Positions 2,301 to 64,000 of a stretch of DNA of 64,000 bases are shown in pieces (positions within the stretch are counted from its first letter, which is position 1; each line of letters begins with the position of its first letter). Source of the DNA: Mustelus asterias (Eukaryota); the NCBI RefSeq assembly GCF_964213995.1, contig NC_135808.1:63674001-63738000 (forward strand), in the 5' to 3' direction. The notes beneath the pieces were generated by a model. It did no database searches, was not told the origin of the DNA, and saw only the letters and a list, made by a program, of their open reading frames with translations. Position numbers and translations under genes: made by a program.

Positions 2301-4484
2301 AATTGAGCAGGTTGTTGTTTCCGCTTCTCAATTTGAGTTCATTCTTACTTGACTGTTGTGATACAACTGAGTGGTTTGCTAGGACATTTCAGAGGGTAGC
2401 CTAAGAGTCAGCCCTATTGCCATGGGCCTGGAGTCAAATATAGGCCAGACAAGGTTAAAACAAAAGATTTCATCCCCTTAAGGGAATTTGTGAACAGGAT
2501 GGATTTCCACAATAAAATGCTAGCTTCATGATCATCATTACTGACTAGAATTTTATTCCAAATTTATGCATTAATTTATTTTAAATTCCCTCAGCTACTG
2601 TGATTTGAACACATGACTCCAGAACATAGCCGAAATTTTATCAGCACACCCACCCTGGGACCTTACGAGCCTCGAGGCGGTATAATTCCAGCACATTAGT
2701 CTGGGCCTCTGGATGACTAGTCCAGTGACATTGCCATCATGTTACTAACCTCCAATTTCAGTAATGGTGTAACATGAATAATTTCTGATGGTGCCTGAGA
2801 GAATAGCCAATTGCATTTTGTTTTCAATTTGATTACATTTAGAAATCAATTTTTTGAGCTGCGTAATGCAAGTGTGACATATTGATGACAGGAGCGGTGA
2901 AATGTGGTGAGAATTTTACACAAGTGTAATGGCTTCAATAGACAGAGTAACGTTTGTCAAATGACTAACCTAGAGCTGCATATATTGAGTGCAAATATCT
3001 GTTGCATGGACTCGGCATGCAATTCCTTTTCAATTTCACTTTTCTTTCCTTATTGTGTTTGCCCTTTATATGTAAATTAGATGTCACATAATACAAAGGT
3101 ACACATTTCTCCTTTTTAGGGGAATGTTTTAGACACATACTTCTTGGGGAAGGGCATTAATTTTTAATTCTGGCAAAGATTATGCGAAAGTGTCGATGCT
3201 TATTATACACTATAATCTGTTTATGTAATAAAAATTAATGACCTTTGACGTTTGTGCACAGACAAATTGTTCATCTTGAGGTAATTCATTGTATCCTATT
3301 ATAAGCATTCATTTCCTCAAGCATCCTTTGTGATTTATATTTTGTTTATAGACTGCAATCCGGTAATTTTTCTCATGGTAGCAAATCCACTCCTGTTGGA
3401 GCTCCTCACTGTGCTACCAAAGAGTTGGTGCCACCTAACTTTGTTAGCTCCACATTAACATCATCGTGCATAGAGAGCAGTGTCACCGGGAGGTCTGGCA
3501 TGCTGATTAACACATCGACTGCAACCCACCCTTCCCTACCCCTCACCTTTTTCCACTTCCTTCTCTAGGAAGCTGGGGTCAACAAGACTGTTCCAGTGTA
3601 ACATGTACAGATACCCAATCTGTAGGAAGTCGTAATGAAATGATAATATCCCGATGTTGGAAGAAAACTTCAGAGGAAAGCAGAAACATGTACTGCAGTC
3701 AGGGGCCCACATTTTGAGTTTAAAATTGCTCCAACTTTACTCCATTAGCTTTTAAGACTCTGCGATCGTTTGCTCTTTTTAAAATTTTAATTCTGCCCAG
3801 GTTCTGCTTTTAACTGGGCCAAAATGGTGCAGAAAGTCCAGGCAATTGTACACTACAAAGAATGAAACAGTGTGTTCTCTGATTTGGTATGAGTATTTGC
3901 ATGGGCAATCAGTTTCCGTATGCAGAGGAATAAAACCTTGCTTTTAAATTAGTCCTCAAGATACCGCCAATTTGAACTGATTTGTGAAATAGTAATTTCA
4001 CTCATAATAGCGTGGACCGATGGTGATTCAGAAACTTTTCATTTATTGTGTTGCACACAACATAACATTGTTTTTGATGTGATTTCTTCCCAAAAGAAGA
4101 ACAGGGATGTGGCTGCCTGGTTTCAATAAGCTTGTTGGCTTTGTCTTGAGAGCAAAAGGCTGTATTGAAGTTTACTATTATTACCAGGGGTGAATCATCT
4201 CCAGCCCAATCGAATTTGCTTGGTCTGTGTTTTTTTTCCCTGGGAAATGCCGTGCACAGAGTTACTTGTTTGGGGATCTGACTGCATTCGTGCCAATTGC
4301 TCGAACAAAGGTTGGTGGTGGGCAGCAGTTGGCTTTTTCCACCAGTCATTCTGAAGGTTCGCACAGAGAATCAGCATGAGACCCCTGCCATGTGACCATT
4401 TGCTGGGCAGCTAAAGAACCCTCATTGTTGTGGTTGGTGAATAGATTTGCGTGATGGCAATAAAATGCAGGTTGCCAGTTTGTT

Positions 4485-10460: not shown

Positions 10461-11234
10461 CAGTAAGAAGTTTAACAACACCAGGTTAAAGTCCAACAGG
10501 TTTATTTGGTAGCAAAAGCCACACAAGCTTTCGGAGCTCTTAGCCCCTTCTTCAGGTGAGTGGGAATTCTGTTCACAAACAGAGCTTATAAAGACACAGA
10601 CTCAATTTACATGAATAATGGTTGGAATGCAAATACTTACAACTAATCAAGTCTTTAAGAGACGAAACAATGTGAGTGGAGAGAGCATCAAGACAGGCTA
10701 AAAAGATGTGTATTGTCTCCAGACAAGACAGCCAGTGAAACTCTGCAGGTCCACGCAACTGTGGGAGTTACAAATAGTGTGACATGAACCCAATATCCCG
10801 GTTGAGGCCGTCCTCGTGTGTGCGGAACTTGGCTATCAGTTTCTGCTCAGCGACTCTGCGCTGTCGTGTGTCGCGAAGGCCGCCTTGGAGAACGCTTACC
10901 TGAATATCAGAGGCCGAATGCCCGTGACCGTGTATTGTCTGGAGACAATACACATCTTTTTAGCCTGTCTTGATGCTCTCTCCACTCACATTGTTTCGTC
11001 TCTTAAAGACTGGATTAGTTGTAAGTATTTGCATTCCAACCATTATTCATGTAAATTGAGTCTGTGTCTTTATAAGCTCTGTTTGTGAACAGAATTCCCA
11101 CTCACCTGAAGAAGGGGCTAAGAGCTCCGAAAGCTTTTGTGGCTTTTGCTACCAAATAAACCTGTTGGACTTTAACCTGGTGTTGTTAAACTTCTTACTG
11201 TGTTTACCCCAGTCCAACGCCGGCATCTCCACAT
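10461..11234. mobile_element. Penelope-like retroelement fragment with ~270-bp inverted arms, GIY-YIG C-terminal spacer and one-sided tail
   Basis: Arms 10461-10730 and 10931-11200 are near-identical inverted repeats. The spacer encodes, on the minus strand, VSVLQGGLRDTRQRRVAEQKLIAKFRTHEDGLNRDIGFMSHYL*. Tail at 11201-11234. Target duplication caaaagaaaat at 10450-10460 and 11235-11245. Confidence 0.88.
10522..10558 (-). ncRNA. minimal hammerhead ribozyme motif; mirror copy on the + strand at 11103-11139
   Basis: CAC-CTGAAGA-a-GGGGC-taaga-GCTCC-GAAA-GCT-T-GTG on the minus strand. The plus-strand mirror has a G>T change in stem I. Confidence 0.72.
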
Positions 11235-11739
11235 CAAAAGAAAATCTGCAGGCGTGGCTCACACCATCACGCTGGTAGGGCAGTGCCGGAGAAAGCTAGT
11301 CATCCCAATCTCTCTGATCGAAAATACAGGAATTCCATGCCACACACACACACACACATATCACAAGGGGACTCACCACCCCTACCCCCCTCCACCCCCA
11401 CCATGCCACCCCCCCCCCCGCCCCGCCCCCAGAACATGGGGGAGTTCTCACCACCATGGCCATGGGGAATACCTCCCCACCCACAGAGAAGGGGAACCCC
11501 CCCCTCCTCATTTATATGGGGTTCCCCAGTGGGGCCCCCTTGGCACTGCCCCCTGGCATTGTCCCCTGGCACTCAATGGTGTGATTCTCATTTTCTGACT
11601 CCCACGCTATTTTGCACCCATGCCACCATTTGTGCATGCAGCAGACGCAGGCACACAATCGCAACAACAGTGTGTATGGGATGTAGGATAAAACTGAGAG
11701 AGTGGAAATGTTAGATATTGCACTAAGTTAGTATTACAG

Positions 11740-33451: not shown

Positions 33452-34573
33452 CTAATTCCTTCTCTTGGATTTTTCCCTTTTTCCTGTCTCCCTCTGTTGC
33501 CTTGAATTGTTTGCTTTTCCTCTTCTCTTCACCGGAGCTTCTAAAATTTCGACGGTTTCAGTTAATTGAATGTTGTGTGGTAATGGGGTTGCTGGTGGTT
33601 TCCAATTGGATGTGTTGGGCATGTTCAGATGTCTCACCACATTCTTCGGTTTCATGTTCTGTTGTTGAAGTGGGTGCATGTACAAAGGCAAAGCCAACTT
33701 GTTTGGAAGATCGATGTAAGGTTGGTACGGTTGGGGTGGAGCTATTAACGCCATTCTATTCACAATTGGCAGTGGTGCTTGCGAAATAGGATACAAGTCC
33801 ACATCCCTTGGCTTAAGGTATCGCTTTTGATGTTTCTTTGCTCGGGGTGCGACATCTATGTAAGAAGGGTTAACTCCAGTGATGGCAGCTATCTGATGGG
33901 CATTGCTCAGGTCTGCAAAAGCTCGCTCAGGCAGAACTGGGTTGTAAAGCGTTGTCCGAGGCACACCGTTCACAAACTTATGAAGGATTGTCAGCCATGT
34001 CTCACTGCTGATGGGATTGAGGGTAACCCTTGGCCAAAGTGAAGCCAAGCTGTGGAGAGCTTCTCTATTCCATCCAGATTCAGAAAAATGATCATCAGTA
34101 TGATAGAGCGCAGAGAAATAAATGTCCAACCTCGTGCTGGGATAGTTTACCAAGAAATCACACATTTTGTTTATACAGTAGTGGGGTCTTTCATTGCACG
34201 GGGTGTAATTGGAATAGATGGTTATGTAAGCAATATTTTCATAGGAGTACAAAAGTGTCTCTAGATAGCCATCTATATCAAAGAAGATAGCTTCTGGATG
34301 AAGATGATATGAAGTACAGTTAGTTACTTGTCCTTTCTGCACTAAGGTACCAGATGATAACTTGAGCTCATAGAAGACCAGATGCCTGCCACTCTGTAGT
34401 TGAGCATAGGGAAACCCAAAGCTTTCATAAAATTCAATGTAGGAAACACGTGCTTCTTCCCCTGTCTTGATGTGATAAGGACATTTTGGACAGCTTTCAG
34501 TGAAATACAGCCAGTAGTAAGGTTTCACCAGTGTGCCCTGAGGAGCAATATATTCTTCATAAACGGCAGTCAT
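33452..34573 (-). CDS. APOBEC4: APOBEC4 (AID/APOBEC family cytidine deaminase-like protein), complete 373-aa CDS in one exon
   Basis: Uninterrupted ORF. It has the N-terminal VKPYYW/CPKCPYHIKTGEEARV block, zinc-binding H92-P-E94 and P-C126-x6-C133 (six-residue Cys spacing is typical of APOBEC4), and C-terminal PKNVVRHLNMP. An in-frame TGA upstream fixes the ATG (gccatcATG). Splice acceptor ttctctttcag lies 75 nt upstream, so the exon starts at 34648. Confidence 0.96.
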   Translation of the reverse strand: MTAVYEEYIAPQGTLVKPYYWLYFTESCPKCPYHIKTGEEARVSYIEFYESFGFPYAQLQSGRHLVFYELKLSSGTLVQKGQVTNCTSYHLHPEAIFFDIDGYLETLLYSYENIAYITIYSNYTPCNERPHYCINKMCDFLVNYPSTRLDIYFSALYHTDDHFSESGWNREALHSLASLWPRVTLNPISSETWLTILHKFVNGVPRTTLYNPVLPERAFADLSNAHQIAAITGVNPSYIDVAPRAKKHQKRYLKPRDVDLYPISQAPLPIVNRMALIAPPQPYQPYIDLPNKLALPLYMHPLQQQNMKPKNVVRHLNMPNTSNWKPPATPLPHNIQLTETVEILEAPVKRRGKANNSRQQRETGKREKSKRRN

Positions 34574-34648
34574 GATGGCTGGTTCATCTCCACATTTGGA
34601 GAGTATAATTTCATTGCACCATCATAATCCTTTAAGGATAATGTATTC
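34574..34648 (-). promoter_or_regulatory. 5' UTR part of the APOBEC4 coding exon, with short upstream ORFs
   Basis: Lies between the polypyrimidine/AG acceptor (AG at 34650-34649) and the main ATG; contains five upstream ATGs. Confidence 0.65.
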
Positions 34649-39960: not shown

Positions 39961-40907
39961 AGAAATGACATACACTATTAAGCACAGTCCATTGTCTCTC
40001 TCAAAGGACTGTTGCCAATAATGATAAATATTCTCCATGGTTGTAATGTACTTATAAAACAGCTGAAACTACAAACAATACTCTTAAGTCAATATTTGCC
40101 TATAACCTAGTCAATATTTTTTACAAGTTTATCAAAGTATTTACAAATGGGGCATAGAGTACAAAATCCTACAAGCTTTATGACAGATTATTTTTCTACT
40201 CTGATTCGCACTTTCAGGGGGATTCTGAAATTGAACCCCTCAGTATCAATCACTATTCATTCATCCCCTTCAGCATCTTTCGCACTCACCCCATTAAATT
40301 GCACTTTATTTCTATTCATTTTGGTGAAGCCCAGCGTTTATCATCCATCCCTAATTGCCCTTGAGAATCACTGCAGTCCATGTGGTGTAGGGACATCCAC
40401 AGTGCTGTTAGATAGGGAGCTCCAGGACTTTGACCCAGCAACAATGAAAGAACACCATATATTTTGAAGTCATGATTATGGGTGACTTGGAGAAGAACTT
40501 TCCCTTCCATCTGCTGCCCCTGTTCTTCTAAGTAATAGTAGAGGTTGTGGATTTGGAAGGTGCTATCTTCCTGTCACCATTGTTTAAATGAAAGTGCAAA
40601 AATATTTAATATCTCTTGCCATACCTTCATCCCTCCATCATCCCCTCCATTAGCGAGTGATTCTGCCTTCTCTAATGTTTTTTAATTCATTAATAGGAAT
40701 GTACCAGCGTGGTTAAAGCCAGTATTTATTGTGCAATTCCATTTAATCTTGAGAAGTTGGTGATGAACCTTCTCCTTGGGTACAAATGAGTGGCTGGTTA
40801 GGCCATTTCAGAGGGCAGTTAAGAATCAACCACATTGCTGTTGGCCTAGATTCATATGTAGGCCAGAACAAGTGAGGATGGCAGATTTTCTTCCCAAAAG
40901 GACATCA

Positions 40908-41088
40908 TGATTTGGAGATGCCGGCATTGGACTAGGGTGGGCACAGTAAGAAGTCTCACAACACCAGGTTAAAGTCCAACAGGTTTATTTGGACTCACCT
41001 GATGAAGGAGAAGCGCTCCAAAAGCTCGTGATTCCAAATAAACCTGTTGGACTCTAACCTTGTGTTGTGAGACTTCTTACTGTGCCCA
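40908..41088. mobile_element. short Penelope-derived hairpin insertion inside a DeuSINE-like repeat
   Basis: Same terminal sequence (cagtaagaagt...ccaaataaacctgttggact) inverted around a hammerhead-like core. Tail on the left. Imperfect duplication aaggacatca/aaggatatca. Confidence 0.8.
40995..41031 (+). ncRNA. degenerate hammerhead ribozyme motif (GAAA>AAAA)
   Basis: TCAC-CTGATGA-a-GGAG-aagcg-CTCC-AAAA-GCT-C-GTGA. Confidence 0.6.
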
Positions 41089-52170: not shown

Positions 52171-52171
52171 A

Positions 52172-52404
52172 CAGTAAGAAGTCTAACAACACCAGGCTAA
52201 AGTCCAACAGGTTTATTTGGTAGCAAACGCTACTAGCGTTCGGAGCGTGCTGCTCCCTCGTCTGATCTCCCACTCCACCTGACGAAGAAGCAGCGCTCCG
52301 AAAGCTAGTGGCGTTTGCTACCAAATAAACCTGTTGGACTTTAACCTGGTGTTGTCAGACTTCTTACTGTGTTTACCCCAGTCCAAGGCCGGCATCTCCA
52401 CATG
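52172..52404. mobile_element. Penelope-derived hairpin insertion
   Basis: Inverted arms of about 95 bp, tail on the right, perfect 11-bp target duplication aaaactctata (52161-52171, 52405-52415). Confidence 0.88.
52275..52311 (+). ncRNA. minimal hammerhead ribozyme motif (one stem II mismatch)
   Basis: CCAC-CTGACGA-a-GAAGC-agc-GCTCC-GAAA-GCT-A-GTGG. Confidence 0.7.
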
Positions 52405-54534: not shown

Positions 54535-55517
54535 GTTAGTATATGTTGGCTTAAATGGAATGGGAGAGAGGGAAAAGTAGTTGGAGAAGAGTGCGTTCTG
54601 AGTGTTTTTCTAGCAGCTATTTTTATATACAAAACTTGAAATGGACTGTGCATTTTAAAAGTGGAAATATATAATGAGGCTTTGTATAAACAGAACTGCT
54701 GCTTTTTGAGATATTTGAACACATGCATCCGCATTTTTCCTTATTTAAATTGGGAATGTCGCATATAAAGTAAAGCAAAATATTTCGCCCTGCGCGGTTC
54801 CTTCAATGTGTCATCAAGAAGGTACAGGTAATGTTAAAAATCAGCGTTGGGCTGAGGGCTGATTCCCCAGAGGAGGCATGTTTCCGCTGACTTGCACTGG
54901 AGCCAGGTCAGGTTCTGCGTTAGACCCAAACTTGCGAGGTGAAACCACTGGGTGGGTCAGGGGCGCAGATTCCCTGCTTCATCAGGGGACTGGGCATGCT
55001 TTGACTTCTCATTCGGTGGCAAGTGATTAACCTGTTACCCTGTGACCCGCACGGCAAGGTTTTCAATGACTCGTAAAGCAAGTTCACGTCGGTATGGGCT
55101 GGTTGGTGTGTTTTGCAGCAGAGCTCCTGACAGTCGGCTTTTTTTACAGGCTGGTTAGACCAGTGTATTCGCATTCATGCACCGCTCAGGTTGCTGCATA
55201 TCCATGCCACCCAGATGTGTTCTGGGTGTGTAGACAGTCCTCACTGAAATCAGGGAAATCCTGTTGGAGGCAATCCCCTCATTTCATTCACCTGCACAGT
55301 AAATGTTTAACGGGCCACTGTTGAATTACTAACATCTTTTACTAGCAAAGAATCACTGTGACTTGACCTTATATATATATAGCTATGGTCTTTTCCCCAG
55401 GGCAGGGGGGTCCAAAACTAGAGGGCATAGGTTTAAAGTGCGAGAGGAAAGATTTAAAAGGGACCTGAGGGGCAACTTTTTCACATAGAGGGTGGAATGT
55501 ATGTGGAATGAGCTGTC

Positions 55518-55781
55518 CTGACGTGGAGATGCCGGCGTTGGACTGGGGTGAACACAGTAAGAGTTTTAACAACACCAGGTTAAAGTCCAACAGATTTATC
55601 TGGTAGCAAATGCCATTAGCTTTTGGAGCGCTGCTCCTTCTTCAGATGGAGTGGATATCTGCTCACCATGAGCAGATATCCACTCCATCTGAGGAAGGAG
55701 CAGTGCTCCGAAAGCTAATGGCATTTGCTACCAAATAAACCTGTTGGACTTTAACCTGGTGTTGTTAAAACTCTTACTGTG
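55518..55781. mobile_element. Penelope-derived palindromic insertion inside a CR1 fragment
   Basis: 113-bp arms (55553-55665, 55669-55781) around a 3-nt loop. Tail on the left. Duplicated target tgtggaatgagctg. Confidence 0.88.
55685..55721 (+). ncRNA. minimal type I hammerhead ribozyme motif
   Basis: CCAT-CTGAGGA-a-GGAGC-agt-GCTCC-GAAA-GCT-A-ATGG: core boxes, 5-bp stem II, palindromic AGCT stem III and CCAT/ATGG stem I. Confidence 0.78.
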
Positions 55782-55968
55782 GAATGAGCTGCCAGAGGAG
55801 TGGTAGAGACAGGTACAATTACAACATTTAAAACACATTTGGACAGGTACATGGATAAAAAAGTTTTAAAGGGATATGGGCTAAACACAAGCAAATAGGA
55901 CAAGGTCAGTCAGCATGAACGAGTTGATCCAAAGGGCCTGTTTCCATGCTGCATACCTCTCTCTCTCG

Positions 55969-63904: not shown

Positions 63905-64000
63905 GGGATTCGCATTCTAATCAGTATTCTGTAACTTGAGTTTGTGTCTCTGTGCCTTATTTGTGAGCAGATTTCCACTCCATCTGACGAAGGAGCAGCG
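63905..64000 (+). mobile_element. start of another Penelope-like terminal repeat, truncated by the window end
   Basis: gtaacttgagtttgtgtctctgtgcc...ccactccatctgacgaaggagcagcg aligns with 11050-11120 and 55670-55705. Confidence 0.75.

Follow-up and report, generated by a model that had tools for sequence, protein, structure and literature searches.

A known minimal hammerhead ribozyme in an abundant shark Penelope-like element, and insertion ends that likely record its cleavage in vivo

Minimal type I hammerhead ribozymes (min-HHR) were described in the pLTRs of metazoan Penelope-like elements by Cervera and De la Pena in 2014 (PMC4209133); the passages of that paper on which we draw contain no in vivo evidence of Penelope hammerhead cleavage, and PMC8557442, where it deals with these hammerheads, calls their function 'still unclear'. 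The same text describes a CX2-5CxxC linker as common to Neptune and Nematis elements. For the Poseidon element PAc of Anolis carolinensis, Frangieh et al. 2024 (PMC11167929) report an element protein that cleaves both target strands and extends them, initiates at two internal sites and aids its own hammerhead; in the results given there, no RNA-seq reads ended at the cut and the hammerhead was dispensable for insertion in vitro. Hammerheads are also found in the non-LTR retrozymes of Li, Clavereau and Pollet 2026 (bioRxiv 10.64898/2026.07.22.740005). Here, we describe a shark locus that carries such a motif. Our main reading, to which we assign a probability of about 0.72, is that the known min-HHR, situated in the pLTR of a young and very abundant shark Penelope-like element, likely acts in vivo to cleave a minority of the transcripts made from that element, and that the copy at this locus and most dispersed copies are decaying passengers.

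The stretch of DNA analysed (the window) comprises 64,000 nt of Mustelus asterias (NC_135808.1, 63,674,001-63,738,000), and all coordinates below are window positions. At 55685-55721 on the forward strand, the sequence reads as a complete minimal type I hammerhead layout, as the original prediction had it, with the cut predicted between 55717 and 55718. The features of this locus and of related insertions in the window are as follows.

55685..55721, + strand: intact minimal type I hammerhead motif with the layout of the min-HHR consensus in the supplement of PMC4209133, CCAT-CTGAGGA-A-GGAGC-agt-GCTCC-GAAA-GC-T-A-ATGG, that is, stem I CCAT/ATGG, core CTGAGGA at 55689-55695, extra A, stem II GGAGC/GCTCC, GAAA at 55710-55713, GC, U16.1 and H17 = A at 55717.
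55613..55649, - strand: mirror hammerhead motif with G12A (AAAA), predicted dead.
55669..55781, + strand: short pLTR arm without tail, bearing the 55685 motif (reference positions 2960-3064).
55516..55666, - strand: inverted pLTR arm with a 35-38 nt tail, the tail end being the ORF start codon in full elements.
55502..55515, + strand: left copy of the 14-nt target-site duplication.
55778..55791, + strand: right copy of the 14-nt target-site duplication.
55734..55739, + strand: AATAAA, 16 nt 3' of the predicted cut, conserved across subfamilies.
10461..11236, no single strand: head-to-head insertion from a related subfamily; it contains a 3' fragment of the endonuclease, a 12-nt target duplication and hammerheads at 10522-10558 (-, intact) and 11103-11139 (+, stem I pair broken).
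40906..41088, no single strand: head-to-head insertion with a G12A hammerhead at 40995-41031 (+).
52171..52403, no single strand: head-to-head insertion with an 11-nt target duplication, a hammerhead at 52275-52311 (+) whose core is intact and whose stem II has one mismatch, and a minus-strand mirror with broken core.
63908..64000, + strand: pLTR arm whose intact hammerhead, from 63980, crosses the window edge into the adjoining locus L049.

The 55685 locus is a 266-bp head-to-head insertion between the 14-nt target duplications, and a putatively LINE-like fragment was its target. Read-through RNA is predicted to fold into one 113-bp hairpin with the mirror arm (-215 kcal/mol), and the 55685 motif has no tandem partner nearby on the same strand. 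A strict hammerhead descriptor gave two matches in the window and none in any of 200 first-order Markov resamples; scans with Rfam covariance models returned no hammerhead family among their matches, only chance hairpins. Related motifs occur at every coordinate at which the original prediction had listed a recurrence, but several are damaged. The copy at 40995, given as GAAA, has AAAA (G12A at 41020) plus a stem II mismatch; the one at 11103 has TTG in place of GTG, which breaks the stem I pair beside the cut; the stem II at 52275 has GAAGC with one mismatch, and its mirror at 52221-52273 has a broken core; and the minus-strand mirror at 55613-55649 also carries G12A. The copy at 63980, thought to be truncated, is only crossed by the window edge and continues intact. 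In all, three of the eight window copies are fully intact (10522-, 55685+ and 63980+) and five are damaged.

Two neighbouring observations concern the rest of the window. A short repeat family, which we take to be headed by a tRNA-like sequence, has at least 12 copies on both strands between 1349 and 53003, together with fragments that we likewise assume to be LINE-like. In addition, a 389-codon open frame at 33455-34621(-) has APOBEC4/NAD1 Pfam matches (E 1e-21 to 1e-25) and, judging by these, is likely an APOBEC4 coding exon; human APOBEC4 is nested in an intron of RGL1, which would fit the word 'intronic' in the original prediction.

Genome copies of the 55685 arm are 98-99% alike and run upstream into a GIY-YIG plus RT coding region; RT, GIY-YIG and pLTR architecture were all found with the copies, in agreement with the Penelope origin proposed earlier. 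An RT query of the genome gave 26,551 candidates, and many of the 147 scored lie in frames of more than 800 codons. Among 18 RT loci fetched, four (L035, L038, L039 and L040) contain a complete ORF flanked on either side by repeats 99.6-100% alike, and one (L045) is a tandem element; the hammerhead is present in both pLTRs of the RT-EN element in these four loci and in the tandem L045. A distance of 3,097 nt separates the two predicted cuts of L039, the first being 99 nt upstream of the ORF ATG, and the 893-aa ORF has YIDD, a CHSNLCKTC linker at residue 754 and YIGET at residue 806. Profile matches were obtained for RVT_1 on L007 and L039 and for GIY-YIG on L004 (23 bits at a cutoff of 22.6), and the whole L039 protein gave no GIY-YIG match at E 0.01. 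By its sequence, the linker points to an assignment of the element toward Neptune or Nematis. Among named proteins, the closest come from sharks (84-95% across 50-72% of the query), followed by those of turtles (42-45%).

The arms of the element stop at two fixed 3' points, ~65 and ~100 nt past the cut, with the longer end (the tail) stopping at the ATG, and the element shows partial tandems, inverted arms, a tail at one end and target duplications. In some junctions (L083:5426-5494 and L137), part of the ORF start (reference 1-77) is present in inverted orientation, which suggests that copying at times starts, or switches, at points downstream of the tail. We also observed AATAAA at 7-18 nt past the cut, depending on the subfamily, with a GU-rich stretch after it; in the material of PMC4209133, the turtle motif likewise has AATAAA, and we speculate that cleavage could part the unit RNA from its polyadenylation signal. 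The family makes up 3.7% of 600 kb sampled at 60 evenly spaced genome places. Forty hammerhead-bearing arms in this sample correspond to ~245,000 genome-wide, with a Poisson range of 172,000-325,000 that is too narrow because arms occur in pairs; the prediction of very many copies on both strands thus holds. Most of these genome copies appear, from their sequences, to be decaying.

To examine the fold, we aligned 35 of the 40 sampled copies with six window copies, giving 41 aligned copies and 38 distinct rows. At the stem I pair adjoining the cut, 27 of the 38 rows have C-G and 10 have U-A, one stem II pair is A-U in 29, G-U in 7 and G-C in 1, 95.4% of stem cells are paired, and 12 cells are changed on both sides. 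The covariation score exceeds all 500 shuffles and every slid control; of note, the rows represent a handful of subfamily-level events rather than independent ones, and related rows can beat shuffles without structure. Changes on both sides occur in only three of nine pairs, which 24 of 500 shuffles reach. Subject to the same relatedness, a stem II closed by G10.1-C11.1 and a short stem I with compensatory changes are present, as the prediction of compensatory stem changes between subfamilies required. Its other particulars fared similarly: the stem I variants CAC/GTG, TCAC/GTGA, CCAC/GTGG and CCAT/ATGG all exist, position N7 takes all four bases, and the palindrome expected for stem III, AGCU at 15.2-16.2, is nearly invariant among the 41 aligned copies (its duplex is predicted at -2.5 kcal/mol, with no stable monomer stem III). 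The cleavage base, said never to be G, is A in 15, C in 12, T in 12 and G in 1 of the 40 copies from the evenly spaced genome samples, this G probably having arisen via a one-base deletion. As a separate observation, the stem II forms GGAGC/GCTCC, GGGGC/GCTCC and GGGGC/GCCTC in L039, L045 and window 10522 make up an A-U, G-U and G-C series, and the GGGGC/GCCTC form is carried by copies with near-identical flanking repeats.

The CpG formed by C11.1 and G12 provides a built-in test of maintenance because decay on one strand kills G12 and decay on the other leaves a G-U pair. Exact genome counts for one 28-mer were 41,757 intact, 5,783 G12A and 6,506 C11.1U. The ratio of G12A to C11.1U is 0.89, which differs from 1 (p 7e-11) and is close to what neutral decay would give, suggesting that dispersed copies decay almost neutrally. 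These numbers bear on the proposal that dispersed copies are maintained as ribozymes and cleave host pre-mRNA. The 11% deficit of G12A would fit it, as would the intact core in 35 of the 40 sampled copies, a proportion biased upwards by a search that requires a near-intact core; however, near-symmetric CpG decay fits young neutral copies, a gap of this size can stem from sequence context or from selection in source elements, five of the eight window copies are damaged, and the 55685 read-through RNA is a 113-bp hairpin with no same-strand tandem partner nearby. We give this proposal hardly any credence and see no sign of host-serving intronic ribozymes. Judged from these comparisons, the fold is selected in source elements and lost in dispersed copies. 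The predicted retention of a functional fold by several subfamilies therefore stands for source elements but not for dispersed copies, which are not maintained ribozymes given the near-equal CpG decay, the damage in the window and the sequestration of the 55685 motif in a hairpin. Near-neutral decay and that hairpin also make the 55685 copy a passenger: the motif itself and this copy are ordinary, and the copy is inert at its locus.

What is less ordinary, and was overlooked in the original prediction, is where insertions end. The tail-bearing minus arm of the insertion at 40906..41088 begins at the 3' strand of stem I, which is the predicted cut, within a 4-nt microhomology. Because this junction (40992) and another insertion (L052) both began at the predicted cut, we undertook a count of arm ends in the young GTGTGG-type subfamily, requiring two non-matching bases before the arm. 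In this youngest subfamily, 1,614 of 50,385 arms (3.2%) end at the predicted cut; the cut-end share would thus be at least 3%, or about 6% once chance matches in the flanks are taken into account. As controls, 425 arms end 2 bases upstream of the cut and 163 end 4 bases upstream. Among the matches listed for the former position, 39 of 100 start with TT by eye, which would fit A residues added to cDNA ending at the cut. One base downstream, where a stricter letter rule applies, 371 arms end, as against ~1,390 at the cut under the same rule, this being an estimate from the 86 of 100 matches among those listed that fit the rule by eye; in 4 of 30 inspected cut-site loci one G is shared with the partner arm, and shifting that share downstream leaves a 2.2-fold contrast. 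All 30 inspected cut-site loci (29 insertions) are true ends with no core upstream. The majority have a head-to-head partner arm that stops no more than ~10 nt from the cut; L127/128 and L133 have both arms stopping precisely at it, a reading that L116 and L122 also fit.

From 5,134 short head-to-head junctions, we also profiled the first 50, picked regardless of the cut. Of these, 17 have the end of the longer arm at 0/+1, 6 have it at +2 to +6, 12 further upstream and 12 downstream, and 2 are ambiguous; one spurious row (L207) was dropped, and permissive matching over-extends some rows (L190 and L204). The contrast between 0/+1 and +2 to +6 has p ~1e-5 and comes from subfamilies with 9-nt and 11-nt spacers. 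Microhomology of at least 2 nt is present in 6 of the 17 cut junctions; leaving these out gives a p of 0.002, which becomes 0.02 when three rows that are possibly 2 nt short are dropped as well. In the subfamily of the 55685 copy, single arms extend from the cut to the start site between target duplications (L160, L162, L184 and L185). A search for cut ends in that subfamily, with a pattern blind to A at -1, gave 136 matches, a bare count without denominator or flanking control, and at least 4 of 30 inspected loci from this set are not true ends; enrichment of cut ends is therefore demonstrated for the youngest subfamily and only suggested for the others. The cleavage triplet of the youngest subfamily is CUU, a weak triplet for hammerhead cleavage, which speaks against the cleavage reading. 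Separately, three head-to-tail 111-bp units at G000:C4:98883972-98884218 (L176-L178) each run from the predicted cut through the tail and have no hammerhead core.

Could such a pile-up form without cleavage? Reverse transcriptase might stall on folded RNA, or ends might be joined at the AGCT palindrome or at microhomologies. Symmetric head-to-head arms are indeed common at any position, peaks tied to microhomology exist (AAATGG joints, and AAAAGC joints at +9), and the Anolis hammerhead is unneeded in vitro in the experiments of PMC11167929. However, the counting pattern excludes palindromic fold-backs by forbidding T at -1 and -2, a perfect AGCT fold-back occurs in only one of the 50 junctions (L144), the peak lies at the inner end of stem I rather than at the base of stem I or in stem III and drops on both sides, and single arms with target duplications begin at the cut too. 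We regard stalling or joining as an unlikely source of the pile-up. Alternatively, transcription from the pLTR promoter might start at the predicted cut, so that run-off copies of primary transcripts begin there: pLTRs hold promoters according to the part of PMC6765202 concerned, and any fixed RNA 5' end leaves the same footprint. For this, the start site would have to coincide to the base with the scissile bond, and in subfamilies beginning with G or with A. Moreover, by eye and among the matches listed, there is no excess of G at -1 as a trace of the cap (38 of 100, p 0.19; 27 of 100 in the 55685 copy's own subfamily), an argument that presumes that reverse transcriptase copies caps. A coinciding start site thus appears very improbable. 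With both alternatives weighed, the pile-up of arm ends likely records self-cleavage of template RNA in vivo, as read from genomic sequence. A search of the openly accessible literature found no published report of a shark Penelope hammerhead or of insertion ends at its cut.

We suggest the following working model for cleavage and copying. Two motifs would pair via the palindromic AGCU to form stem III, probably with the help of the element protein, and cleave after H17. Such help must be assumed because the cofold minimum (-35.0 kcal/mol) is much lower than the predicted double hammerhead (-20.1 kcal/mol) and stem I is missing from the monomer minimum; that the active fold is not the minimum agrees with the low in vitro rates given in PMC4209133 and with the need for protein in the assays of PMC11167929. 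The two fixed 3' points would be reverse-transcription starts like those described for the Anolis element in the latter. On cut RNA, reverse transcriptase starting 65 or 100 nt downstream would run off at the new 5' end. Joining of the run-off cDNAs would then produce hairpins of 130-170 bp or single inserts of 65-100 bp, with arms starting at the scissile bond. If the RNA was uncut or religated, the enzyme would pass through the motif, yielding the other 94-97% of arms and all full elements; these copies span the intact motif, from which it follows that their RNA was uncut there or religated.

That insertion ends are in sharp excess at the scissile bond provides genome-only evidence that cut RNA exists and is copied, and existing assemblies suffice to measure this excess in different subfamilies and species. 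We lean towards the wider interpretation that germ-line cleavage by the Penelope hammerhead has left a base-exact fossil record in thousands of shark insertions. If so, cut RNA gives only 65-100-bp dead-end insertions, cleavage separates the element's RNA into a unit for translation and a pool of templates, and the fraction of insertions with cut ends in each subfamily becomes an in vivo read-out of cleavage for each natural ribozyme variant.

How does the shark system compare with those described? By its single ORF with RT and C-terminal GIY-YIG, the element fits the definition of endonuclease-bearing Penelope-like elements, some members of which have an intron in the pLTR, and with which it shares partial tandems, an inverted 5'-truncated copy and a 30-40 bp tail, as these are described in the relevant part of PMC8557442; the CX2-5CxxC linker between RT and EN, a Neptune feature, is present as CHSNLCKTC. 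With PAc, as far as the sections of PMC11167929 used here describe it, the element shares pLTR-ORF-pLTR tandems, two internal reverse-transcription starts that define a tail, cutting and extension of both target strands, and a hammerhead roughly 85-100 nt upstream of these starts. It differs in the Neptune-type Cys linker of its protein and in the position of the cut, which is 26 nt inside the ORF in PAc and 99 nt upstream of the ATG in the shark, so that cut shark RNA would keep the whole ORF. The R2 and L1Tc elements with 5' HDV-like ribozymes, in the account of PMC6765202, are alike in that the 5' end of a retroelement RNA is fixed by self-cleavage. Their cut releases a full template, whereas copying in the shark starts 65-100 nt past the cut, and cut linear RNA would for that reason give a mini-insertion only. 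The non-LTR retrozymes have type I hammerheads derived from the pLTRs of Penelope-like elements and, in the sampling given in the preprint, are present in the sole chondrichthyan included; they are head-to-tail tandems with a hammerhead per unit, whereas the 55685 locus is a head-to-head truncated Penelope-like insertion. The head-to-head pair at this locus thus lacks the head-to-tail units of a non-LTR retrozyme.

The closest relative is the min-HHR class itself. The main-text and supplement motifs of PMC4209133 that we compared include no shark and those sections describe no genomic cleavage footprint, and copy number differs, at ~2.5e5 in the shark as against ~4,000 in coelacanth and 9,000 in Xenopus. 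In the features given in these sections, the shark motif agrees with the class: the CUGANGA core, one extra base before stem II, the G10.1-C11.1 pair, the palindromic 15.2-16.2 without loop III and the short stem I are shared, motifs are mostly single and dispersed with some pairs on opposite strands, and the extra H, GAAA and NUH are likewise found in 55685-type motifs. The Chrysemys picta row even has the same GCU, 5-bp stem II and CCAAAUAAA after stem I. We conclude that, at the level of sequence, the shark motif has every feature of the min-HHR and, as the original prediction recognised in calling the class known, belongs with ribozymes described in 2014.
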